A stretch of DNA of 64,000 nt from Candidatus Hodarchaeota archaeon (GCA_048886685.1 JBHLKM010000002.1:199532-263531); one strand, 5' to 3'. Numbered from the stretch's first letter, positions 39,295 to 53,451 are shown. The notes: generated by a model from the letters alone, not told the origin. Translations and numbers: made by a program.

Positions 39295-39562
39295 ATATTT
39301 AATTAAAGGGTTTATTTAAACAACGCATTTTATAATTTTCATATATAATTTTCGATCTCAATGAAATAATTCTAATATAAAATGTTTGAGATCGATCACA
39401 AATCTCTTTCTTCTTGTCATTTTCTAAAACCCAATAATAGAAAATCCTCAGTTTGGATAAAAATGTTTTAATGTTATGATTCCTTTGGAAAAAATTGCCT
39501 ATCTCTATAAACAGAAAGAATTAAAAATATTGAAAATGAATAAATTTTAAAAAAAAACATTT

Positions 39563-39592
39563 AATATTGATCTTGACAAAAAGATCTATATT
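39563..39592. promoter_or_regulatory. Inverted repeat upstream of the seleno-hdrA operon (candidate operator)
   Basis: AATATTGATCTT-gacaaa-AAGATCTATATT (11/12 complementary). Confidence 0.35.
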
Positions 39593-39680
39593 GCAACTTA
39601 AAAATCATTCAATAAACATCTAACAGTTTCAAAAACATACAGTTTTGTATAAAAATTAAGAGGTGGATGTGTAAAAGTAG

Positions 39681-41624
39681 ATGAATAATAAAGAAAATCA
39701 TCGGATTGGATACTATGCTTGTCAATGAGGTGTAAATATAAGAACTAAGGTAGATTGCGATGAATTAACTAATTATGTTAAGAGTCTTGGAGATGAAATT
39801 ATAATTTCGAAGAAAAACCCATTTCTATGAACTGATAATGCTCAAAATGAAATTATAGAGGACATCAAAGAAAAGAATTTAAATAGAATTGTAGCGTCCG
39901 CTTGAACTCCGCGTACACATGAGGTGATTTATAGAGGTACTATTGCTAAAACGGATTTAAATCCTTATTATTTTCAAATGGTAAATGTTCGGGAACATTG
40001 TTCTTGGTGTACAGATACTAAAGAAGAAGCTACAGAAAAGGCAAAAGTTTTAGTAAAAAGTGGCATTGAAAGAGCCAAGCGATTGGAACCTGTTCCTATT
40101 AAAACTGTTCCCGTCACTAAAGCCACTTTAGTTGTTGGAGGTGGGATAGGAGGTATGAATGCAGCTCTAGATTTAGCGAACCAAGGTATTAAAGTTTACT
40201 TAGTCGATATTAAAACAACAATCGGAGGAAGAATGGCTCAATTGGACAGAACCTTTCCAACAGACGACTGTGCGATATGAATCTGCGGTCCAAAAATGCT
40301 TGAAGTTAATAGAAATGAGAATATAGAATTATTAACATATTCTGAAGTAAAAAAAATTGAAGGATACGTTGGTAATTATAAGGTAACTATTGAGAAGAAA
40401 CCACGATACACAACTGATGAATGTAATGGTTGTGGTGCTTGCGCTGAAGTCTGTCCAGTTTATACAACGAATTATTTTGATGAGCATCTAGGTGCACGAA
40501 GAGCAATAGATATTCCATTTGGTCAGGCAGTCCCGTTTCTATATGATATTGATCGAAATGCATGTGTTGAGTGTTTTTCATGTGTAGACGCTTGTGAATT
40601 GGATGCTATTGATTTTAGCCAGGAACCTACAGAACTTAATGTTGAGGTTGGTACAATCATTATAGCGACTGGTTGGGATATACATGAACCTTTTGGCGAA
40701 TACGGATATGGAGAATTCGAAAATGTGATTACTCAAGCTCAACTAGAACGAATTTTAGCTCCAAACGGACCACTTGAAGGCCACGTACATCGAATTTCGG
40801 ATAATAAGAAACCTAAGGAAATTGTTTTCATTCAATGTGTCGGTAGTAGAGAAGAGGATAGGACTTACTGCAGCGGAGTGTGTTGCATGCTTGCTTTAAA
40901 GAATGGACGATTGCTTTTAGAAGAATTTCCTGATGCAAACATTACAATCTGTTATATTGACATAAGAACTCCTGAAAAAGGATTTGAAGAATACTATGAA
41001 CGAGCTAAAGATGCTGGTATTAGATTGATACGAGGGAAAGTAGGTGAAATTTCTGAAGATCCAGAAACAAAGAACGTGAAAGTTCGAGTATATTCAACAT
41101 TAACAGATAAAATTGTAAAAATTGATGCTGATTTAGTTGTGTTATCCACAGCAGCAATCCCTTCAAAAGGTACTCAACAGATTGTAGAACTTTTAAATCT
41201 TGATACTAATACTTATGGCTTTCTAACAGAATCACATTTCGGATTAATGCCCCAAGAAACTAAGTCAAAAGGCATTTTTATAGCTGGATTTGCTCAAGGA
41301 CCGAAAAATATTTCTTATTCCGTTTCTCAAGCTAGAGCCGCTGCTAGTAAAGTAGCGGAATTAACATCACCTGGAGAAATAGATATTGAACTAATTACTG
41401 CTGAAGTTGATAGCGATTTTTGTATCTCCTGTCGACGATGCGAAAAAGAATGCCCTAAAAATGCCATCAAGATTGAAGAAGACATCGGAGCGTTCATTGA
41501 TGAGATAAATTGCGATGGATGCGGTATCTGTGCTACATGCTGTCCTACTCAGGCAATTGATATAAGGTATTATCGAGATCATCAATTATTTGCAGAAATT
41601 GATGGAATTTTAGGAGGTGGTTAA
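39681..41624 (+). CDS. hdrA: Selenocysteine-containing heterodisulfide reductase subunit A (647 aa; Sec at codons 16, 50, 75 and 200)
   Basis: One frame from ATG 39681 to TAA 41624 with TGA at 39726, 39828, 39903 and 40278. Contexts CQUG, FLUT, SAUTPRTHE and DCAIUICGPK match CHCG, YSCS, ASCTPRTHE and DCSLCILAPK in the Cys paralogues of this window. Joins ORF-track fragments 39924-40280 and 40296-41624. Confidence 0.93.
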
Positions 41625-41627
41625 ACA

Positions 41628-42101
41628 ATGGACAACTATAATTATAAAATTGTTGCTTTTGCTTGTTTAAAATGAGGTTATAGCGCAGCGGATTTAGCAG
41701 GTGTTTCACGAATGAAATACCCTTCTTCCATAAAAATAATTAAAGTTCGTTGTACAGGAAGAGTAGATTTGAAACATATACTTTATAGCATTAAATCTGG
41801 GGCGGATGGTGTAATGCTTGCTGGTTGAAGACCCAGTGAATGCCAGTATAAAAACGGTAATTTCACGGCTAATAAACATGTCGAATTCGCAAATAGAATT
41901 TTAGAATCTAGAGGCTTCGGAAATCAAAGAATTAACATGTATTGGTTAAGTGGAGCAGAGTCAGAAAAATTTGTAAGAAGTGTAGAAGATGCTTTAGAAA
42001 AGGTAAAATCTGTTGGACCAAGCCCAATTAATTTAGTAAAACAAGAAGCAGAAATAGAAGCTAAAGAAACAAAACAAGCTATAACTACCCCTGCAGAATG
42101 A
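41628..42101 (+). CDS. vhuD: Selenocysteine-containing MvhD/VhuD [2Fe-2S] subunit (157 aa; Sec at codons 16 and 67)
   Basis: MDNYNYKIVAFACLKUGYSAADLAGVSRMKYP...VRCTGRVD...GVMLAGURPSECQY. TGA at 41673 and 41826 align with Cys of FLCNWCSY and LGCHPGDC in the MvhD paralogues. SD GGAGGTGG upstream. Missing from the ORF track. Confidence 0.93.
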
Positions 42102-42146
42102 ATCTTATAAAAAACTTTAGTTATAGGATGACTTACCTTGCGAGGG
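42088..42146 (+). ncRNA. Eukaryote-like SECIS element (cis-acting mRNA structure)
   Basis: Lower stem CCCUGCAG / CUUGCGAGGG. Core AUGA (42098-42101) opposite UGA (42129-42131). Upper stem AUCUUAUAA / UUAUAGGAU. A-rich apical loop AAAACUUUAG. Confidence 0.85.
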
Positions 42147-42184
42147 AAGGGGTCTTAAAATAGTATTCAATTAAAATAAAAAAT

Positions 42185-43714
42185 TTGTTAAATGGAAAAA
42201 TCCAAAAGGATGAGAATATGGTTCAAATTTCAAATAATGTATCTTTCAATGGAATATCCCCAAAAAATCTAATGGATGCAACATATAAAGCCATTAAAAA
42301 TTTTCAAATTCGAGCGTTCTTCGAAGCTAAAGATGAAATTTTAGAAATAGGTAAATATTCTGAAGAAGAATTTTATAAAATATTAGATGCCATGATAGAT
42401 GCTGAAACAGAGCGTAAATTAGTACTGGAGTCTTTAAGGGGTAAGGAACCGTTATTTTTAGAGGAAATTGCAAAAATTCTAAAAGACTTTCCGGCAGAAC
42501 ATGTAATTCGTGATATAATTTACCTAAAAGAACAGGGATATATTGAAGAACATATTGAAATAAAAACTAAAATAGTTATCAAGAAAATAAAGGGAGAAGA
42601 AAAAGAAGTCGAGGAACAAGAATATTTCTACAGATATCAAGTAAAAGATATACCCGAGGATTTCATTGAACATTTTTTTGAACCTGTCTCTATTGTCTTC
42701 GATTCTGAAGTATGCTGTCAATGTGGTTGGTGTTCATCTATTTGTCCTGTAAATGCCATTACAGTCACAGCAGATACTTTAGAGATCGATGATGAGACTT
42801 GTATGAAATGTGGGATCTGTTATTCTGTTTGCCCGAGATCATTTTCAATTGAACAAGCGGGTAAAAGCATAAATAAGCTTGATAAATCTTTAAAATTCTC
42901 AGAAAAAATTAATGGTTATATTAATACCTATTCTGCCTCCACCACTAAAAATGAAATTAAAAAAGTTCGACAAGATGGGGGAATTGTTACTTCTTTACTT
43001 GAATACTTACTCAAGAATAAATTAGTTGATGCAATTATAGCTGTAAAACATTCAAAGGACCTATGGAAACCAGAGCCAGTAATAGTAGAAGATGTTAAAG
43101 ATTTATACAAAACAAGTGGTACTAAATACGCTAATGCCTCAACTTTAAATATCATTGATGAAACGAAAAAGTACGAAAACATAGCAGTCGTAGGAGTTCC
43201 TTGTATGATGAATGCATTAAAAAAAGGGTATTTATTTCCAAGCGGACAACCTTTTTTCAAAAACATTAGCTATAGAATAGGGCTTTTCTGCATGGAATCT
43301 TTTCCCTATGAAGGAGTGCTTAAATTAATTAAAGATCAATTTGATAAAGATTTTAATAAAGTTACTAAAATGGATATAAGTGGGGGTAAATTTATTATAT
43401 ATTTAGATTCGGGTGAGGATTTAAGAGTACCCTTAAACGATGTTAAATCCTATGCACGCCATAATTGTCATTTTTGTGAGGATTTGACTGCCGATTATGC
43501 TGATATTTCTGTAGGATCGATTGGGTCTCCTAGTGGTTGGTCTACAGTAATTACGCGAAATGAAAAAGGTGATAAAATCTATAAAGACGCAATTAAAGCA
43601 GGATTAATTGAATCTAAAAGCTTAAAGGAGGTAAAACCAGGACAACCCTTATTAGAAAGGATTGCTGGTACAAAAAGAAAAAATTGTAAACCCATTAAAT
43701 TGGGACAAGAATAA
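42185..43714 (+). CDS. FrhB-family protein with N-terminal helical/wHTH module and ferredoxin domain
   Basis: CCQCGWCSSICP, CMKCGICYSVCP, QDGGIVT, VGVPC, IGLFCME, CHFCED...ADISVGSIG. The start may be the ATG at 42218. Confidence 0.88.
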   Translation: MLNGKIQKDENMVQISNNVSFNGISPKNLMDATYKAIKNFQIRAFFEAKDEILEIGKYSEEEFYKILDAMIDAETERKLVLESLRGKEPLFLEEIAKILKDFPAEHVIRDIIYLKEQGYIEEHIEIKTKIVIKKIKGEEKEVEEQEYFYRYQVKDIPEDFIEHFFEPVSIVFDSEVCCQCGWCSSICPVNAITVTADTLEIDDETCMKCGICYSVCPRSFSIEQAGKSINKLDKSLKFSEKINGYINTYSASTTKNEIKKVRQDGGIVTSLLEYLLKNKLVDAIIAVKHSKDLWKPEPVIVEDVKDLYKTSGTKYANASTLNIIDETKKYENIAVVGVPCMMNALKKGYLFPSGQPFFKNISYRIGLFCMESFPYEGVLKLIKDQFDKDFNKVTKMDISGGKFIIYLDSGEDLRVPLNDVKSYARHNCHFCEDLTADYADISVGSIGSPSGWSTVITRNEKGDKIYKDAIKAGLIESKSLKEVKPGQPLLERIAGTKRKNCKPIKLGQE

Positions 43715-43732
43715 TAATAACAAAGAATTATT

Positions 43733-44833
43733 ATGAGTGTAAAATCTTTTCAAAATTTAATAAAAGAAGTTCATGAGAAAGGAATTTGTCAAGAATGCGG
43801 AGGTTGCGTAAGTTTTTGTAGTTCGGTTGATTATAATGTTATAGGATTTAAAGAACCTTACTCACCTCCAGAATATATTAATAAAGATGCGTGTCTTGAA
43901 TGTGGTATTTGTTATTATCTATGTCCTCAAACTCACATATTAGACGATGAACTTAATAAAACTTATAAATTTATAGATTTTAAATCAATGCCACTTGGTT
44001 ATTTCGAAGACATATATTCTTGCCAATCCACTGATCCTGATTTTCTAAAATATGGAACTGATGGTGGAGTAGTGAATTCAATAATTAATTATATGTTAGA
44101 AAAGAAATTAATTGATGGAGCAATAGTTGCTAAAATTCAGGGTCCTTTTTCAAAAGAAGCTATGTTTGCTGGTGATAAAAAAGATTTAATTAAAGGTTCT
44201 GGGACAAAACTTGAAATATCGACACAGTTAGATGAGATACAGAATTTTTGTACGTATACTCGCTCCATCCCAGAATTAAACCGTTACAAATTTAAAAAAT
44301 TAGCAATAGTAGGGACGCCCTGTCAAATTTATACCATCAGGTGTATGCAAAATTTAGGGGTTACTCCTTCAGAATATATAGAAATATGTTTAGGATTATT
44401 TTGTTATCATAATTTCCTTTTTGATAAAGCTCAAATAGAAAAATTTGAAAAAGACTTTGATGTAAAATTTGAAGATATCACAAAAATAAACATTAAGGAA
44501 GATCTTATTTTAAAAATTGGCACAGATGGGAGAGTAGTACATATTCCCTTCGATAAAATAGTAGATTATGTACGTCCCGCTTGCTTTAGTTGTGCTGATT
44601 TCACCAATGTGTATTCAGACATTTCTTTTGGAGGACTTGGATCTCCAGATAAGTATACTACAGTAATTCCCCGTACTGAAAAAGGACGTAAATTATTTCA
44701 TAAAGTTCTGGATGATCAACTTATCAAAAAATTAGTACTTGATGCTCCTGAAAAAAGTAAAATGAAAGAACGAATAACAAAATTCTCTCATTCGAAAATG
44801 GAGAGGGAACTAAGTTTTGTAAAAAATTTATAG
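43733..44833 (+). CDS. FrhB/FdhB-family protein with N-terminal ferredoxin
   Basis: CQECGGCVSFC, CLECGICYYLCP, TDGGVV, VGTPCQ, LGLFC, CFSCADF...SDISFG. Confidence 0.88.
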   Translation: MSVKSFQNLIKEVHEKGICQECGGCVSFCSSVDYNVIGFKEPYSPPEYINKDACLECGICYYLCPQTHILDDELNKTYKFIDFKSMPLGYFEDIYSCQSTDPDFLKYGTDGGVVNSIINYMLEKKLIDGAIVAKIQGPFSKEAMFAGDKKDLIKGSGTKLEISTQLDEIQNFCTYTRSIPELNRYKFKKLAIVGTPCQIYTIRCMQNLGVTPSEYIEICLGLFCYHNFLFDKAQIEKFEKDFDVKFEDITKINIKEDLILKIGTDGRVVHIPFDKIVDYVRPACFSCADFTNVYSDISFGGLGSPDKYTTVIPRTEKGRKLFHKVLDDQLIKKLVLDAPEKSKMKERITKFSHSKMERELSFVKNL

Positions 44834-44840
44834 TAAGGGT

Positions 44841-46097
44841 GTGAGATATCTGACCGAGTTGAAACAACCCAGTAAAAGTGATCAAGAAACTGATGAAATT
44901 CAAGTTTTTTTAGATAAAATATATGAAACTGATTTAAGACATTTATTGAAAAAATGTTATCAATGCGCACGATGCTCAGGTGTATGTCAAATTAGTAAGG
45001 TTCAGAAATTTACACCTAGTAGGATCATCCAAATGATTTTGGAGGGATTTGAAGACGAAATAATTGATAATGGAGTATTATGGGAATGTTTGACCTGTAA
45101 TAGTTGTCTCCAAGACTGTCCTAAAAATATAAATTTTGCAGATATTGCTCGGATTCTAAGATATAAAATGAGAAATAAGGGTATTCATAACCTTGAGAGA
45201 GCGGTTGCTCATAAAGGAATTTATCCTACAATGGGTGAATTGATGAGTCAAGATTATATTAATATCAATCGTCCTTTAGATTGGATCCCTAAAGGTTGTA
45301 AGATTGCAGATAAAGGTGAAATCTTATATTACGTTGGATGTTTGCCATTTTTCGATTATGATTTTCAGAATCTCAAGCCTATCTCATCAAGTACTTTAAA
45401 AACTATATGTAAAATTGAAAATGAACCAATTGTCGTACTTAAAGAAGAGACTTGTTGTGGACATGATTTATATTGGGGGCAAGGAAAATTTGAAGTTTTT
45501 ATTGAGTTAGCTAAGAAAAATCGAGAAAAATTTGAAAAAGCAGGCATATCAACAATAATTACTGCTTGTGCGGAATGCTACAGAACATTCAAGGTTGATT
45601 ATGCGAATTTATTTGATGATTTCAATAAAAGGTTTGATGTTCAACATATTATTGAATATGTATATGATAAGTGGAAACAAGGGAAGATCGATTTTAAAAA
45701 ACCTAATGAAAAATATAAGAAAACCACTTTTACGTTTCACGATCCCTGTAGATTAAGTAGATTTTTACCAACAGAAAACAACCTGGTAAAGAATTTAAGA
45801 GAAATTTTTAATTATCTACAGAATTTGGGGTATAATTTTAAAGAAATGAAACATAATCAAGAAAATTCCCTATGCTGCGGAGTTAGTTCTTGGTTAAATT
45901 GTAATGAGCGCTCTAAAGCATTGCGATACACCCGAATCTTAGAGGCAAAAGAGGTTGCTACTCAAGTATATACATCTTGTCCTAAATGTAACGTTCATTT
46001 GAATTGTATTAAAAAAGATTATGAGGATATTTCTTCGGTAGAAATTTCAGATCTTTCAGAATTTCTCGCAGATATAATAAAAATTGTAAAAAGTTAG
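44841..46097 (+). CDS. HdrD-like Fe-S oxidoreductase (HdrC-like 2x[4Fe-4S] plus two CCG domains)
   Basis: CYQCARCSGVC, CLTCNSCLQDCP, YYVGC, ETCCG, TACAEC, HDPC, LCCG, TSCPKC. Confidence 0.88.
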   Translation: MRYLTELKQPSKSDQETDEIQVFLDKIYETDLRHLLKKCYQCARCSGVCQISKVQKFTPSRIIQMILEGFEDEIIDNGVLWECLTCNSCLQDCPKNINFADIARILRYKMRNKGIHNLERAVAHKGIYPTMGELMSQDYININRPLDWIPKGCKIADKGEILYYVGCLPFFDYDFQNLKPISSSTLKTICKIENEPIVVLKEETCCGHDLYWGQGKFEVFIELAKKNREKFEKAGISTIITACAECYRTFKVDYANLFDDFNKRFDVQHIIEYVYDKWKQGKIDFKKPNEKYKKTTFTFHDPCRLSRFLPTENNLVKNLREIFNYLQNLGYNFKEMKHNQENSLCCGVSSWLNCNERSKALRYTRILEAKEVATQVYTSCPKCNVHLNCIKKDYEDISSVEISDLSEFLADIIKIVKS

Positions 46098-46120
46098 AAA
46101 ATTGAGGAGATAATAAAATC

Positions 46121-49100
46121 ATGGAAGGATCTGTGTTAGTAATTGGAGGAGGTATTGCAGGGATCCAAGCTTCTTTAGATTTAACGGAGATGGGATTTAA
46201 AGTTTATCTAGTAGAAAAAACTCCTTCTATTGGAGGTAGAATGGCTCAACTCGATAAAACATTTCCTACTTTAGATTGTAGTTTATGCATATTGGCACCT
46301 AAAATGGTTGAAGTTTTCAGAAATCCTAATATCGAACTAATGACTTATCATGAAGTTAAAGAGGTTACTGGTAAAGCTGGAGATTTTAAGGTTACTGTTC
46401 TTAAGAGACCTCGTTTTGTTGATGAGACAAAATGCAAAGGATGTGGGGATTGTACCACTAGATGCCCAAAGATCGAAGCCCCAAATATTTTTGACATGAA
46501 TCTGGGAAAAAGAAAATCAATATACATCCCATTTCCTCAAGCAGTTCCACCAGTTTATTTGATTGATCCTGATATGTGTTTAAAATTGACGAGGGATGTA
46601 TGTGGTGTCTGTGAAAAAGTTTGTGAAGCAAAAGCTATAGATTTCACACAAAAAACTCAAGAAATTCAAATAAGTGTTGGAGCGATAGTAGTTGCTACTG
46701 GATTTGATATGGCTAGAGATGGTTTATCATCAAGATGGGGCATTGATTATGATAATGTAGTGACTGCATTAGAGTATGAAAGAATTCTATGTGCTTCTGG
46801 ACCATTTGGGGGGCATGTTTTACGCCCGAGTGATAAGGAAGAGCCAGAAAAGATAGCATTTATTCAATGTGCTGGATCAAGAGACTTGCATGAAAGAATT
46901 CCCTATTGTTCCAGCGTATGTTGTATGTATACGAGTAAAGAAGCCATAATCACTAAGGAACACTCTGATCAGTCACAATGTTTTGTTTTTAGACATGATA
47001 TTAGAGCCTATGGGAAAAATTTCTATGAATTTACCCAGAGAGCCCAAAATGAATATGGTGTGAATTATTTTCACACTAAAATTAGTAAGATTAAAGAAGA
47101 TCCTGAGAATAATGATCTGATTATACACTATGAAGATTTACAATCAGGTTTACTTAATAATTTTCGAGCAAATTTAGTCGTCTTGGCAACACCCTTGGTC
47201 CCTTCTAAGGGAACTGAAGAATTAGCAAAGATTTTAGATATCGAATTAGATGACTATAACTTTTTTAAGGAGAAATCACATTTTACTAAATCGAGATCCT
47301 CGAAAAAAGGTATTTTTTTAGCAGGATTTTGCCAAGGACCTATGGATATACCTGAAACTGTGGCTGATGCCAGTGGAGTGGCTTCCCAAGTAGCAGTTCT
47401 ACTTAGTTCCGTTAAATTTACTGAGACCAAAGAAAAAATAATAGAAGTGCCAGAAAAAGAGGTAAAAATAACAGATGACCCGAGAATTGGGGTACTAATT
47501 TGTCATTGTGGAATTAACATAGGAAAATATATCGATATTCCAAAAGTTATTGAATATATAAAGAATTTGCCTAATGTGGTTTTTTGTGAAGATAATTTGT
47601 ATTCTTGCAGTTCCGATTCTCAAGAAAGAATTAAGGAAGTAATAAACGAATTTAATTTAAATAGGTTTGTTGTAGCATCGTGTACTCCACGAACTCATGA
47701 ATCCTTATTCCAAGAGACCTGTCAAGAAGCAGGATTGAATAAATACTTGTTTCAAATGGCTAACATTAGGGACCAGTGTTCTTGGGTTCATATGGAACAA
47801 CCAGAAGAAGCTACGCAAAAAGCAAAAGATCTAATTGAAATGGCTGTTGCTAAATCCAGATTATTTAAACCCCAAGAAGAACAGACATTATCCATGACTC
47901 CCAAAGCATTAATTATTGGTGGGGGTATATCTGGAATGACTGCCGCGTTAAATATTGCTAATCAAGGATTTAATGTCTACCTTATAGAAAAAGAGAACAG
48001 GTTAGGGGGATTATTAAATGATTTATATCTCTTATATCCCACTCAAGAAGATTCTTCAACATTTTTAAAGAGGATAATAGAAGATACTACCAAAAATAAA
48101 AACATCCAGATATGTTTAGAATCAAAAGTAAAAGATGTTAAAGGATATATAGGTAATTATGATATCTCCATTGTTAACTCCAAAAAAGAAATTACCGAAT
48201 TTAAAGTGGGTGTTATTATTGTTGCTACTGGGGGAAAAGAATTAAAACCTATTGGATATCCGCAATATAATGATAAAAATCAAAATGTAATAACTCAATT
48301 AGAACTGGAACGGAAATTAAAAGCTGAAGATTTATCATGGCTTGACAAGATCAAACGCATTACGACTATCTTGTGTGTTAGAGCTAGAGAAGTAAAAGGA
48401 ATTACATATTGTTCAAATGTGTGTTGTGCAATATCTATTAAAAACTTAAATATTCTTAAGGAATTAAAGCCAGATCTTGAAATAATTGTTCTTTACAGAG
48501 ATTTTCAAATGGCCAAAAAAGAATTTGAAGAATATTTCTTTGATAGAAGGAAGGATGCAATTCTTCTGAGATATAATTTAAATAAACCACCAGATATTAA
48601 AAAAATTGGTAATAAACCCGAGAAATATGGAATAAAGGTATTCGATACTAATTTACAAGATGATATCAATTTTGAAACAGATATGATTATCTTATCTCCT
48701 CCTATGAGTCCTCCAGAAAATTCAGAAGAATTAGCAAAAATGCTTAAAGTACCTTTAGACCATCAAGGCTTTTTCTTAGAAGCTCATGCTAAATTAAGAC
48801 CTGTAGATTTCGCAACAGATGGAGTATTTTTATGTGGATGTGCCCATTGGCCAAAACATATTCAAGAATCAATTACTCAGGCAAATGGAGCAGCAGGAAG
48901 AGCAAGCAGATTTTTGAGTTCAGAAGATATTATTGCATCGGGTTTAGTATCAGAGGTGGATGATGAATTATGTATCGGATGTGGTGTTTGCGTGAAACTT
49001 TGTCCTTATAATGCAATATCGAAGAATGAACAAGAGGTAGCGGTTGTTAACAAACTCATGTGCAAAGGATGTGGAGTTTGTGGTGCTAGTTGTCCTGAAA

Positions 49101-49171
49101 ATGCGATAACTGTACATCATTTTACAGACGACCAAATCTTATCAGAAATTATTGTATACGGAGGAGATTAA
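46121..49171 (+). CDS. hdrA: Large HdrA-family flavoprotein (two FAD-binding modules, Cys form)
   Basis: GGGIAG, LDKTFPTLDCSLC, QCAGSR...CSSVCC, ICHCGINIG, SCTPRTHE, second GGGISG, EAHAKLRPVDF and a terminal ferredoxin. Confidence 0.92.
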   Translation: MEGSVLVIGGGIAGIQASLDLTEMGFKVYLVEKTPSIGGRMAQLDKTFPTLDCSLCILAPKMVEVFRNPNIELMTYHEVKEVTGKAGDFKVTVLKRPRFVDETKCKGCGDCTTRCPKIEAPNIFDMNLGKRKSIYIPFPQAVPPVYLIDPDMCLKLTRDVCGVCEKVCEAKAIDFTQKTQEIQISVGAIVVATGFDMARDGLSSRWGIDYDNVVTALEYERILCASGPFGGHVLRPSDKEEPEKIAFIQCAGSRDLHERIPYCSSVCCMYTSKEAIITKEHSDQSQCFVFRHDIRAYGKNFYEFTQRAQNEYGVNYFHTKISKIKEDPENNDLIIHYEDLQSGLLNNFRANLVVLATPLVPSKGTEELAKILDIELDDYNFFKEKSHFTKSRSSKKGIFLAGFCQGPMDIPETVADASGVASQVAVLLSSVKFTETKEKIIEVPEKEVKITDDPRIGVLICHCGINIGKYIDIPKVIEYIKNLPNVVFCEDNLYSCSSDSQERIKEVINEFNLNRFVVASCTPRTHESLFQETCQEAGLNKYLFQMANIRDQCSWVHMEQPEEATQKAKDLIEMAVAKSRLFKPQEEQTLSMTPKALIIGGGISGMTAALNIANQGFNVYLIEKENRLGGLLNDLYLLYPTQEDSSTFLKRIIEDTTKNKNIQICLESKVKDVKGYIGNYDISIVNSKKEITEFKVGVIIVATGGKELKPIGYPQYNDKNQNVITQLELERKLKAEDLSWLDKIKRITTILCVRAREVKGITYCSNVCCAISIKNLNILKELKPDLEIIVLYRDFQMAKKEFEEYFFDRRKDAILLRYNLNKPPDIKKIGNKPEKYGIKVFDTNLQDDINFETDMIILSPPMSPPENSEELAKMLKVPLDHQGFFLEAHAKLRPVDFATDGVFLCGCAHWPKHIQESITQANGAAGRASRFLSSEDIIASGLVSEVDDELCIGCGVCVKLCPYNAISKNEQEVAVVNKLMCKGCGVCGASCPENAITVHHFTDDQILSEIIVYGGD

Positions 49172-49175
49172 TTAT

Positions 49176-49949
49176 ATGAATTTCACCCCAAAAATTTTAG
49201 GATTTTTATGTAATTGGTGCTCTTATGCTGGAGCAGATCTTGCTGGGGTAAGTCGAATTCAATACTCTCCTAATATTAGGATAGTAAGGGTTATGTGCAG
49301 TGGAAGAGTTGATCCTATATTTATTGCTGAAGCACTCTCAAGAAATATTGATGGAGTACTTGTTTTAGGATGTCATCCTGGAGACTGCCATTATATCAGC
49401 GGTAATTATGAAGCAGAGATAAAAATGAAGATGCTAACTAAATTATTGAAAATAATTGGGTTTTCTGAACGTTTAAGGTTGGATTGGGTTTCTGCTGCTG
49501 AAGGAAATAGATTTGCTCAACTAGTAAATGAATTTACTGAGCATATTAAAAATTTGGGTCCAAATCTGGTTAGAGACAAAAAATTAAAAAATAAATTAAT
49601 ATCCGATTTTGATGCTATAAAATCTGTATTGAAAGATTCAAGACTTAGAATTCTAGTTGGTAGAGAAAGAAAAATCATTAATGAAGGTAATGCATATAAC
49701 GAGAAAATCCCATTAGAGAAATTTGAACAAATTCTTGACGATGCCATTCAGAATGAATTTGAACGTCATAAAATATTACAAATAATTTCTGAAAATGGTA
49801 AATCCGTACCAGAAATCTCTAAAGAAGTTCAACTTCCCCCAAATAATGTGCTAAATCATATTGTTTCCTTAAGACAAAGAGGGTTGGTCGATTTACACGA
49901 GCTGAATGAAGAAATACCCCTATTTATATCAATTAACGAGGGCAAATAA
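49176..49949 (+). CDS. mvhD: MvhD-family subunit (Cys form) with C-terminal helical/wHTH extension
   Basis: GFLCNWCSYAGADLAG, VMCSGRVD, GCHPGDCHY, WVSAAEG. The ATG at 49176 follows SD GGAGG. Confidence 0.9.
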   Translation: MNFTPKILGFLCNWCSYAGADLAGVSRIQYSPNIRIVRVMCSGRVDPIFIAEALSRNIDGVLVLGCHPGDCHYISGNYEAEIKMKMLTKLLKIIGFSERLRLDWVSAAEGNRFAQLVNEFTEHIKNLGPNLVRDKKLKNKLISDFDAIKSVLKDSRLRILVGRERKIINEGNAYNEKIPLEKFEQILDDAIQNEFERHKILQIISENGKSVPEISKEVQLPPNNVLNHIVSLRQRGLVDLHELNEEIPLFISINEGK

Positions 49950-52900
49950 TGGAAAAAGTTGGTGCAGTACTGGTTGTTGGTGGAGGCATAGCAGGTATTC
50001 AAGCATCCATTGATTTGGCAGATTCAGGTTATAAAGTATATATAGTAGAATCGTCTATGAGTATCGGTGGGGTTATGTCACAGCTAGATAAAACCTTTCC
50101 TACTAATGATTGTGCTATATGTATCCTTGCCCCAAAATTAGTGCTTACGGGTCGTCATGAAAATATAGAAATAATAATAAATTCATCTATAGAAAAAATC
50201 GAAGGAGAACCAGGAAATTTTAATGTGGATATTATCCAAAAATCGCTTTATTTAGATCAAAATAAATGTACTGGATGTGGTGTGTGTGCCCAAAAATGCC
50301 CCATTGAAGCTATTGATTTCTTCAATGAAGGATTTTCTAAAAAATCAGCAATATCTGTAAAATTTCCACAAGCAGTTCCATTAGTTTTCTCAATAGATAA
50401 AGAAAAATGTATAGGATGTGAAGTTTGTAAAGAAATTTGTAAAGCAAATGCCATAGATTATGAGCTTAGAGATAAGAAAATAAATCTCAAGGTAGGAGCA
50501 GTAATTTTAGCAATTGGTTTTGATGAATTTGAACCTTCTCCTTTAATAAATATTGGCTACGATAAATACTTGAATGTCATAACGAGTATTGAATTTGAAC
50601 GTACGTTAAGTGCTAGCGGACCTCACTCAGGTTTAATTCTCCGTCCTTCTGATGGAATTATTCCAAAAAAAATAGCTTTCTTACAATGCATCGGTTCAAG
50701 GGATAAAAGTATTAATGCTGAATATTGTTCTTCAGTATGTTGTATGTATACCACAAAAGAAGCAGTAATTGCAAAAGAACATGTGAATTTTATAGAACCT
50801 ACGATCTTTGCAATGGATATAAGAGCATATGGTAAAGATTTTGATAAATATATTGAACGGGCAAAGAATGAACATGGCATACGATATATTAGAAGAAGGA
50901 TTTCAACTATTAGTGAAATTCCAGATTCAAAAGATTTAAAGATTCGATATGAAACAGATGATGGGAAAGTCATTGAAGAAATTTTTAATTTAGTTGTTCT
51001 TGCTGTAGGAGCACAATCTAATAAGAGTTCTATAGAATTAGCTCAAAAGTTAAATATAGAGTTAAATGAATATGGTTTCTGCAAAACAAAAAGTTTTAAT
51101 CCGGTAGAAACATCAAAACCTGGAATCTATGTATGTGGAATGTTTGCCTCACCTAAGGATATCCCAGAAACTGTCATCGAAGCTAGTGCTGCTGCTGGAT
51201 GCGTTAATGTTTTGCTAACAGAAGTAAGAAATACATTAATCTCAAAGAAAGAACTCCCAGAAGAAATTGATGTGAGTGAACAGCCACCAAAAATAGGGGT
51301 CTTTATATGTCATTGTGGAATTAATATTGGGGGGGTTGTTAACGTTCCTGAGATTGTCGAATATGTAAAAACATTACCTAATGTAGTATATGCTGAACAT
51401 AATCTATACACTTGTTCCGCTGATACTCAAACGAATATTAAAGAAAAAATAACAGAAAATCAGCTTAATAGAGTAATAGTTGCTTCATGTACTCCAAGAA
51501 CGCACGAACCCTTATTTCAAGCAACAATACAGGAGGTAGGATTGAATAAGTATCTTTTTGAGATGGTGAATATCAGAGATCAATGCTCTTGGGTTCATAT
51601 GCATGAAGCTGAAAATGCAACATCAAAAGCAAAAGATTTACTAAGAATGTCAGTAGCTAAAGCTGCACAGTTAATTCCATTACAAGAACAAGAAATTGAT
51701 GTAATCGACAAAAGTTTAGTCATTGGTGGGGGTGTATCTGGAATGATTTCAGCTTTAAATTTGGCTTCTCAAGGTTTTGAAGTATTCTTAATTGAAAAAG
51801 AAGATTCTCTAGGAGGATTTGTCAAGAATATTTTCCAAACCCTTGAAAATGACGATATTCAAGAATTTATTATCAACCTAATACAAGAGGTTGAAAATAA
51901 TCAGTTAATTCAAGTATTTAAAAAAGCTCAAATTAATTCAATTTCAGGATACATCGGCAATTTCACCACAAATATATCTTATGGGAAAAATAATAAAATT
52001 ATTGATCTTGAACACGGAATAATTATTGTGGCTACAGGCGCAAAAGAATACCAACCAAATGAATACAATTATGGACAAGATCAGAGAATTATATCTCAAG
52101 TTGAATTTGAAAAAACCCTTTTTACTACAAATGAAGTAAAAAAATTGAATTTAATCACAATGATACAATGTATTGGTTCTAGAAATGAAGATCATCCCTA
52201 TTGTAGCAGAATATGTTGTTCTGAAGCCATAAAGAATGCATTAAAAGCAAAAGAAATCAACCCAAATCTTGAAATAATTATTTTATATCGTGATATTCGT
52301 ACATATGGATTCAAGGAGAAATATTACAATCTGGCTAGAGAAAAAGGAGTCATTTTCATTAGATTTGATGAAAATAAACCCCCAGAATTAAAAATAAAAA
52401 ATGAAAAGTTAAATCTTTTAGTTGAAAGACCCGATATAGGTAAATTGGAAATAAATCCAGAATTAATCGTTTTAAGTACAGGACTCGTAGCACCTATAAA
52501 AGAAAATGAAGATCTAGCAAAAATGCTAAAAGTTCCTCTTAATGAGGATAAATTCTTTCTCGAAGCTCATGTAAAATTAAGACCAATTGACTTTGCAACA
52601 GATGGTATCTTTTTATGTGGTTGTGCACACTCACCTAAAAATATTAGGGAATCTATTGCTCAAGCTAATGGAGCCGCTGCCCAAGCAGTTAAAGTTTTGG
52701 GTGCTAAAAAAATTGTAACATCCGGTCTTGTTGCTACTGTAATAGAAGATAATTGTATTGGATGTGGAAATTGTGTTGAAGTTTGCCAATTTAATGCAAT
52801 AGAATTAGTAGAACAACAAAAAGAGTTCGAAGATTGCACAATTACAATAAAAAAATCTCATGTTAATTCAGCATTATGTAAAGGTTGCGGGACATGTGGA

Positions 52901-52984
52901 GCTCAATGCCCAAATTCTACAATTATTATAAAACATTTTGGATTCGAGCAAATAAGTGCCATGATTTCTGCTCTTTTAGTCTAA
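49949..52984 (+). CDS. hdrA: Large HdrA-family flavoprotein (Cys form)
   Basis: Same double-FAD architecture as 46121-49171. TAATG stop/start coupling with the upstream mvhD. Confidence 0.92.
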   Translation: MEKVGAVLVVGGGIAGIQASIDLADSGYKVYIVESSMSIGGVMSQLDKTFPTNDCAICILAPKLVLTGRHENIEIIINSSIEKIEGEPGNFNVDIIQKSLYLDQNKCTGCGVCAQKCPIEAIDFFNEGFSKKSAISVKFPQAVPLVFSIDKEKCIGCEVCKEICKANAIDYELRDKKINLKVGAVILAIGFDEFEPSPLINIGYDKYLNVITSIEFERTLSASGPHSGLILRPSDGIIPKKIAFLQCIGSRDKSINAEYCSSVCCMYTTKEAVIAKEHVNFIEPTIFAMDIRAYGKDFDKYIERAKNEHGIRYIRRRISTISEIPDSKDLKIRYETDDGKVIEEIFNLVVLAVGAQSNKSSIELAQKLNIELNEYGFCKTKSFNPVETSKPGIYVCGMFASPKDIPETVIEASAAAGCVNVLLTEVRNTLISKKELPEEIDVSEQPPKIGVFICHCGINIGGVVNVPEIVEYVKTLPNVVYAEHNLYTCSADTQTNIKEKITENQLNRVIVASCTPRTHEPLFQATIQEVGLNKYLFEMVNIRDQCSWVHMHEAENATSKAKDLLRMSVAKAAQLIPLQEQEIDVIDKSLVIGGGVSGMISALNLASQGFEVFLIEKEDSLGGFVKNIFQTLENDDIQEFIINLIQEVENNQLIQVFKKAQINSISGYIGNFTTNISYGKNNKIIDLEHGIIIVATGAKEYQPNEYNYGQDQRIISQVEFEKTLFTTNEVKKLNLITMIQCIGSRNEDHPYCSRICCSEAIKNALKAKEINPNLEIIILYRDIRTYGFKEKYYNLAREKGVIFIRFDENKPPELKIKNEKLNLLVERPDIGKLEINPELIVLSTGLVAPIKENEDLAKMLKVPLNEDKFFLEAHVKLRPIDFATDGIFLCGCAHSPKNIRESIAQANGAAAQAVKVLGAKKIVTSGLVATVIEDNCIGCGNCVEVCQFNAIELVEQQKEFEDCTITIKKSHVNSALCKGCGTCGAQCPNSTIIIKHFGFEQISAMISALLV

Positions 52985-53019
52985 TATTAAATTGTAATTA
53001 ATGAAAAAAATGAGGAATA

Positions 53020-53451
53020 TTGATAAGTCAAGAAAAAAAAGGAAAAAATGTAGAATTTACTCCCAATATTTTATGTTTTTGCTGTAATTGGTGTAGTTAT
53101 GCAGGAGCAGATTTAGCTGGAGTATCACGTTTTCAATATCCCCCGACCATAAAAATAGTAAGAGTAATGTGTTCTGGTAGAGTAGATCCCGCTTTCGTTT
53201 TAGAGGCATTTAAAGAGGGTATTGATGGAGTCATTGTGACAGGGTGCCATATCGGTGATTGCCATTACCTTAAAGGAAATGAATTTGCAAAAGAAAGATT
53301 TGAACGTTTTAGAGAAACTATAAAAATATTTAACCTCGAGAAGAGATTTCGACTTGAATGGGTAAGTGCATCTGAAGGTAAACGATTCGCTGAAGTTATC
53401 ACTGAATTTACTAATCAAATTAAAAAATTAGGCCCATTACTCACAATTTAA
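53020..53451 (+). CDS. mvhD: MvhD-family subunit (Cys form)
   Basis: CFCCNWCSYAGADLAG, VMCSGRVD, GCHIGDCHY, WVSASEG. Confidence 0.93.
   Translation: MISQEKKGKNVEFTPNILCFCCNWCSYAGADLAGVSRFQYPPTIKIVRVMCSGRVDPAFVLEAFKEGIDGVIVTGCHIGDCHYLKGNEFAKERFERFRETIKIFNLEKRFRLEWVSASEGKRFAEVITEFTNQIKKLGPLLTI

Follow-up and report, generated by a model that had tools for sequence, protein, structure and literature searches.

The hairpin that begins within the last codons of vhuD is very probably a type-I lokiSECIS at the 3' end of a co-transcribed hdrA–vhuD gene pair. There it would direct selenocysteine (Sec) insertion at six in-frame UGA codons distributed over two cistrons, and the UGA within its own AUGA core would serve as the stop codon of vhuD. 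The locus is part of the window, that is, the whole stretch of 64,000 nucleotides that was analysed, and coordinates refer to the window unless a contig is named. The window comes from a Promethearchaeota MAG (Loki-type Asgard) of 4.4 Mb and 31% GC, in which the Sec machinery is clustered within 7 kb (219573-226340 of contig C1):

Contig C1, 219573-220874: SepSecS (482.8 bits)
Contig C1, 221073-221165, complement: tRNA-Sec, next to SepSecS
Contig C1, 225153-226340: EFsec-like GTPase (237.4 bits, just below the bacterial SelB cut-off)

The gene pair and the motif at its junction are arranged in the window as follows:

39681-41624, plus strand: hdrA selenoprotein gene, 647 codons, identified by its translation, Pfam domains and a match to PDB 9sfi
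41613-41619, plus strand: Shine-Dalgarno-like GGAGGUG inside the 3' end of hdrA, 8 nt before the vhuD AUG
41628-42101, plus strand: vhuD (MvhD/FlpD) selenoprotein gene, 157 codons plus stop (Pfam FlpD, 9.5e-44)

The hdrA product carries Pfam Fer4/Pyr_redox domains, and its best match among solved HdrA chains is PDB 9sfi (2.5e-202). Four in-frame UGAs at 39726, 39828, 39903 and 40278 (codons 16, 50, 75 and 200) precede the TAA at 41622-41624 that ends the gene. U16, U50 and U75 are aligned on Cys of PDB 9sfi and U200 on X (Sec), and the two UGAs of vhuD at 41673 and 41826 both fall on X (Sec) of chain K of this structure. By this alignment to Cys or Sec, all six UGAs are assigned as Sec codons. 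The hdrA orthologues contain 4-5 UGAs each and stop at TAA/TAG. In a table 11 ORF list hdrA appears in fragments and vhuD as a 54-aa stub; the locus illustrates how standard annotation breaks such genes. The earlier note had placed the two genes 3 nt apart, and this is indeed the distance between the hdrA TAA, which ends at 41624, and the vhuD ATG at 41628. A GGAGG motif is also found at the hdrA–vhuD junction in most orthologues, and the GGAGGUG here suggests that the two genes may undergo coupled translation from one mRNA. The 3' end of hdrA (41493-41604) also gives a sub-threshold match to the C/D-box snoRNA model Afu_514 (27 bits, E 0.034), which is probably due to chance.

The homology of VhuD to solved MvhD stops near residue 135, and a C-terminal extension of about 22 residues carries the reading frame from there into the hairpin. 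This extension (42032-42098) is variable among orthologues except for its last residues, (I/L)-T-T-P-(A/V)-E. Because these residues are encoded by the 5' strand of the SECIS lower helix, their conservation may reflect a constraint on the RNA rather than on the peptide. The parts of the element, including its coding 5' side, are arranged in this order:

42087-42092, plus strand: 5' strand of the outer lower helix, ACCCCU, coding (Thr-Pro codons), pairs with 42148-42153
42093-42097, plus strand: 5' side of the internal loop, GCAGA, of which GCAG may pair with UUGC at 42138-42141
42098-42101, plus strand: AUGA SECIS core, invariant in 33/33 aligned orthologues and in all 4 paralogous elements
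42102-42129, plus strand: helix II of 9 bp, with 5' arm AUCUUAUAA (42102-42110) and 3' arm UUAUAGGAU (42121-42129), and its 10-nt apical loop AAAACUUUAG (42111-42120)
42130-42137, plus strand: 3' core GA (42130-42131), then C-N3-CC (CUUACC, 42132-42137)
42148-42153, plus strand: 3' strand of the outer lower helix, AGGGGU, pairs with 42087-42092
42154-42217, plus strand: remainder of the 116-nt intergenic gap before an FrhB-like gene (ATG at 42218)

The two-stem hairpin with an AUGA/GA core and an A-rich loop is present where the earlier note had drawn it and is kept in orthologues; a 5' run given there as CCC has to be corrected to CCCC. The 3' GA is the partner of the GA in AUGA in a K-turn-like quartet. 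It reads GA in 31/33 orthologues and AA in 2/33, and the A, the following C and the CC show no variation among orthologues and paralogues. The apical loop starts with AAAA, ends with an invariant G, and is one nucleotide shorter than in most orthologues. The minimum free energy is -15.3 kcal/mol with a z score of -0.8. This energy is unremarkable, and the z score is uninformative because the stem is short and AU-rich.

The comparative evidence carries more weight. The orthologue set comprises 35 loci from three genera of one Promethearchaeota family, in which VhuD is 68-96% identical, and the alignment contains 33 distinct sequences, all of which keep the element. In this alignment helix II is 97.3% paired, six of its nine pairs show compensatory changes, and none of 500 shuffles reaches its score. 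The codon that follows the vhuD UGA specifies I, Y, F, L, C, V or T among orthologues, and its bases covary with the 3' arm. Such free codon change combined with covariation indicates that the constraint acts at the RNA level and not on a peptide. The alignment thus confirms that the predicted hairpin is more than a chance fold.

The lower part of the element had been drawn as a stem of CCCUGCAG with CUUGCGAGGG. This stem is partly supported: only 85% of its cells are paired, many are broken in orthologues, and it is the least supported of the three pairings compared. In the outer helix ACCCCU/AGGGGU 93% of cells are paired and compensatory changes occur; in 7 sequences the pair that involves the third base of the Pro codon has changed from U-A to C-G. 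The outer helix matches the comparative data better than the stem drawn earlier. Inside it, GCAG and UUGC may form a weak 4-bp inner helix (90% paired, mostly by one-sided changes), which is mutually exclusive with a mini-hairpin CCU/GGG (42136-42138 with 42144-42146, 98% paired). The comparative data fit both, and the inner part of the lower helix may take either pairing. In both cases the lower helix draws its 5' strand from coding sequence, as the earlier note had it.

Downstream of the element, the stretch 42154-42217 contains in most orthologues a U5 run and then a conserved AAAUAGUAUUCAAU; these might act as an archaeal terminator, as a TATA box of the FrhB-like gene, or as both. The genes from 39681 to 53451 form one same-strand cluster with short gaps, which starts with the Sec-hdrA and Sec-vhuD genes and also includes two FrhB-like genes, two Cys-type MvhD genes, one gene for an HdrB/C-like CCG protein and two for HdrA-like proteins of about 1010 aa. 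Within this cluster vhuD alone stops at a TGA, that of the core; the other genes end with TAA/TAG.

A single element appears to be available to the six Sec codons. A covariance model, R1, was built on the orthologues and four paralogues; with filters off it scored the hairpin at 65.4 bits in the 64-kb window, whose own sequence is among the training sequences, and the next best match there reached 13.7 bits. R1 found no plus-strand element in or upstream of hdrA within the window. Pattern scans of 39300-42200 agree with this: the generic AUGA-stem-GA (K-turn) pattern gave 2 matches, as compared with 2.6 expected by chance, the GAA_A (Methanococcus-type) pattern gave none, and no further SECIS was retained. 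A pattern match at 39725-39781, at the first Sec codon, has a folding energy of only about -3 kcal/mol, and in 4 orthologues its closing AA and several of its pairs are missing; it was rejected because of this weak fold and its lack of conservation. It was also the sole candidate for a bacterial-type hairpin right 3' of a Sec UGA, and a conserved hairpin of this kind was found behind none of the six. The proposal that one SECIS serves six UGAs up to about 2.4 kb away is therefore supported, no second element having emerged from the model and pattern scans. The six codons lie between 270 and 2372 nt upstream of the AUGA, the first hdrA UGA (39726) being the most distant.

A search of the whole genome with R1 bears on the same question. 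It scored 150 of about 14,000 prefilter candidates, and SelD-type (type II) and VhuU elements may be missed by it. At least six sites were found, in each case either overlapping the end of an ORF that contains in-frame UGA or at most 21 nt behind it. The sites listed belong to three vhuD genes, one solo Sec-hdrA and two small unannotated ORFs. Each of the three vhuD genes is preceded by a Sec-containing hdrA that ends with TAA/TAG, and these three hdrA genes have no element of their own, whereas the solo Sec-hdrA has one. This contrast is the best internal support for sharing of the element within a pair. The solo HdrA-like gene (contig C2, about 317906-319996, minus strand; L041:249-2297:-) contains four internal UGAs and has no vhuD behind it; its own lokiSECIS scores 50.8 bits, and here, too, the AUGA supplies the in-frame stop. 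At 27/27 readable orthologue junctions hdrA ends with TAA/TAG. This regularity, like the TAA/TAG stops of the other cluster genes, is weak evidence for sharing, because TGA stops are rare genome-wide, terminating only about 14% of long ORFs, and because the orthologues are related.

The AUGA core had been said to contain the vhuD stop codon. The UGA at 42099-42101 is in frame (...TTPAE-UGA), and GAAUGA with its UGA as the in-frame vhuD stop is present in 35/35 orthologous loci. The next in-frame stop is the UAA at 42108-42110, inside the stem. Twenty more distant Sec-vhuD loci from the class were used as a specificity set. In 16 of the 20, R1 matches at or near the gene end with 17.0-62.7 bits; in L068 the sole match is a 15.4-bit partial one, and L056, L059 and L064 have no match. 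The vhuD stop was resolved in 13 of these 16 loci (excluding L065, L066 and L062). Eleven of the 13 stops are TAA/TAG that begin 4-22 nt upstream of the first base of AUGA, two are UGA immediately before AUGA, starting 3 nt upstream, and the core UGA is the vhuD stop in none of the 13. The occurrence in 35/35 orthologues as compared with 0/13 distant loci marks the overlap as a fixed trait of this orthologue group. Most simply, the overlap would have arisen when the frame ran through the extension until it met the core UGA.

We infer a single hdrA–vhuD transcript, action of the element on the distant UGAs of hdrA, and the following reason for termination at the core UGA; PMC4989117 had put forward the same model for Lokiarchaeota. 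The folded AUGA/GA kink-turn-like core and the A-rich loop would recruit the Sec-specific elongation factor, directly or via an adaptor. The factor would be delivered to ribosomes paused at the two vhuD UGAs and, across the 3-nt boundary, at the four hdrA UGAs. The core supplies the seventh in-frame UGA. A ribosome that arrives there would already have opened the lower helix, whose 5' strand is coding, and, with the core UGA in its A site, would hold the 5' arm of helix II in the mRNA channel. Because the ribosome would thereby melt or occupy the element, no SECIS would be left in cis, and a release factor would take the core UGA as a stop. One and the same triplet, UGA, would thus be read as Sec while the SECIS can fold and as stop when it cannot. 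Since the SECIS core lies in the last codon of the message, each ribosome completing vhuD would melt the element, and the overlap could act as a translation-coupled gate on upstream Sec decoding. In that case Sec decoding in hdrA and vhuD would pause until the element refolds, ribosome traffic would be paced, and the output of HdrA and VhuD would be tied, which goes beyond the published notion that such a stop is too close to be recoded. We regard a gate of this kind as rather unlikely.

Other explanations of the hairpin are less likely. It may serve vhuD only, the hdrA UGAs being decoded through an unrecognised signal in hdrA, a trans-acting factor or SECIS-independent decoding. Sharing would require recoding past a cistron boundary over 2.4 kb, and the scans covered type-I lokiSECIS, generic AUGA-stem-GA and GAA_A patterns, both of which leave some room for such a division. 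However, neither a second element nor a conserved fold at 39725-39781 was found, an RNAz analysis (PMC4989117) revealed no other conserved structure, and the solo Sec-hdrA has a lokiSECIS at its stop, which the three vhuD-paired hdrA genes lack. These observations make a vhuD-only role unlikely. Still further from the data is a general K-turn (L7Ae-binding) or transcript-end element unrelated to Sec. The AUGA/GA core is K-turn-like and a U-run follows the element in orthologues, as such a role would have it, but every R1 site in the genome (at least six) stands behind an ORF with in-frame UGA and nowhere else among the candidates scored, and the matches at or near the gene end in 16/20 distant Sec-vhuD loci tell the same way. 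We consider this very improbable.

It is also conceivable that the core UGA itself is decoded as Sec to an appreciable extent, so that VhuD ends ...TTPAE-Sec-Ile-Leu at the UAA 42108-42110 and gains a third, C-terminal Sec as in thioredoxin reductases. An in-frame UAA stands 2-3 codons past the UGA in every orthologue, and read-through would therefore be short and harmless. This UAA, however, belongs to the invariant A-U/A-U top of the stem, and stops are common at 31% GC. The amino acid after the UGA is not conserved, and the bases of its codon follow the 3' arm. Moreover, the element would be unable to fold with its own core in the A site, and other vhuD subfamilies, which end with TAA/TAG 4-22 nt before AUGA, have no such tail. 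Sec at the core UGA is accordingly quite improbable, less so than an element unrelated to Sec but more so than one that serves vhuD only.

The two small unannotated ORFs among the R1 sites deserve a description of their own. One of them (contig C14, 111739-112215, minus strand; L049:1548-2024:-) has 159 codons and no Pfam family. It contains a tandem in-frame UGA-UGA at codons 119-120 (...VVHAD-U-U-ADVMKERL...), followed by a conserved 39-residue tail, and a lokiSECIS-like hairpin begins 8 nt past its stop. Its database homologues either end at the first UGA (118 aa) or have WW at that position. The ORF recurs in 58/67 sampled genomes of the same taxonomic family. All full-length matches there have 2-3 internal TGA, and the sole TGA-free match covers just 79 N-terminal residues and lies at the end of a contig. 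A sample of 232 genomes from the phylum's other families gave no match. R1 matches directly behind the ORF in 12/12 loci, and 7/9 pairs are compensatory in the model-fitted alignment. It is a candidate for a new selenoprotein family in which a Sec-Sec pair is obligate; methods that rely on Sec/Cys pairs would miss it. PMC11227280 lists seven Asgard selenoprotein families without it, and a limited literature search found nothing on it. The other ORF (contig C2, 362305-362535, minus strand; L043:406-636:-) has 77 codons, an N-terminal membrane helix and one UGA (GGGUVCAI). Its stop is followed at 21 nt by a strong lokiSECIS (55.8 bits), and the ORF has no convincing Pfam match. Of 47 sampled genomes of the genus, 9 have the ORF, and in each of them the UGA is kept.

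In eukaryotic SECIS_1 elements, helix II spans about 12-15 bp between the core and the apical A's. The element described here has in common with the eukaryotic type I SECIS (Rfam RF00031) the AUGA...GA non-Watson-Crick core, the unpaired apical A's, two helices around an internal loop and, as proposed here, action on distant upstream UGAs. It differs from RF00031 in that its helix II is shorter (9 bp), in that it overlaps coding sequence, and in that it is part of an operon. The Rfam SECIS models do not recognise the hairpin either at the gathering threshold or at E<=10, and give only weak chance matches. The vhuD SECIS of Methanococcales and Methanopyrus belongs to the same gene in the same hdrA–vhuD synteny, and an AUGA motif has been reported there (PMC4989117); the element here has neither the GAA_A bulge nor the GC-rich stems. 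The earlier note had set the element apart from bacterial and methanococcal SECIS, and the tests bear this out, since both the GAA_A type and a conserved UGA-adjacent hairpin are absent. A lokiarchaeal SECIS was inactive in Methanococcus maripaludis (PMC11881835), and SBP2 was not detected in Lokiarchaeota and is not known from Asgard archaea (PMC4989117).

The lokiSECIS was defined by Mariotti et al. 2016 (PMC4989117) as an AUGA, a 9-bp stem with a loop that starts with A and ends with G, and a GA thereafter. The eukaryote-type layout seen in Lokiarchaeota, which the earlier note had recognised here, matches this definition, the likeness being one of layout only. The hairpin has an AUGA next to the stem, a covarying stem of 9 bp, a loop with the A start and G end, and a GA 3' of the stem. 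It stands at the end of a gene with in-frame UGAs at Cys/Sec positions, in a genome with Sec machinery. In PMC4989117, HdrA–VhuD pairs share a single element after vhuD with none near hdrA, HdrA contains up to four Sec, a pair has up to six UGAs over about 2 kb, and the HdrA stop is never UGA. The lokiSECIS of the HdrA–VhuD pairs in Lokiarchaeum GC14_75 and related metagenomes has the same core, stem, loop ends and GA, and Lokiarchaeum GC14_75 likewise has a very short or overlapping hdrA–vhuD junction, a multi-Sec HdrA and a non-UGA hdrA stop. The loop is of 10 nt here and of 11 there, and here, as compared with Lokiarchaeum GC14_75, the vhuD frame enters the element and the core UGA is the stop. 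The solo HdrA-like gene with a lokiSECIS of its own is unlike the published statement that Loki HdrA always precedes VhuD.

Overlap of SECIS and stop codon also has precedents. According to PMC4989117, a lokiSECIS may partly overlap coding sequence, and UGA stops near a SECIS escape recoding, for which a minimal distance or structural constraints were inferred. In VhuU.1 the AUGA contains the stop. VhuD stops are diverse, UGA included, and AUGA as stop is named in that paper for VhuU.1 only. The VhuU.1 lokiSECIS has the same core-UGA terminator and coding 5' part as the element here, but the gene differs, being here vhuD, the downstream member of a gene pair. According to Huang et al. 2024 (PMC11227280), an overlap with an AUGA motif is frequent among Lokiarchaeial UGA stops, and hdrA and frhD/vhuD have one eSECIS-like structure in common. 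As compared with the VhuU.1 case and this statement, the overlap here is fixed in 35 orthologues of three genera. The eukaryote-like layout, the shared SECIS, the escape of the stop from recoding and AUGA as a stop are thus already published (PMC4989117, PMC11227280), and because each interpretive point is contained in these two papers, the novelty claimed for the locus in the earlier note does not hold. What is new is the fixation of the overlap in a vhuD orthologue group, an outer lower helix that has better support and covaries at the third base of a codon, and the contrast, in one and the same genome, between the solo hdrA and the paired ones. The locus is a clear and well-conserved example of a prokaryotic operon with a eukaryote-like SECIS, which apparently serves the six UGAs of two cistrons, and with 35 orthologues and clear covariation it provides a good template for work on lokiSECIS binding, recoding and C-terminal proteomics.
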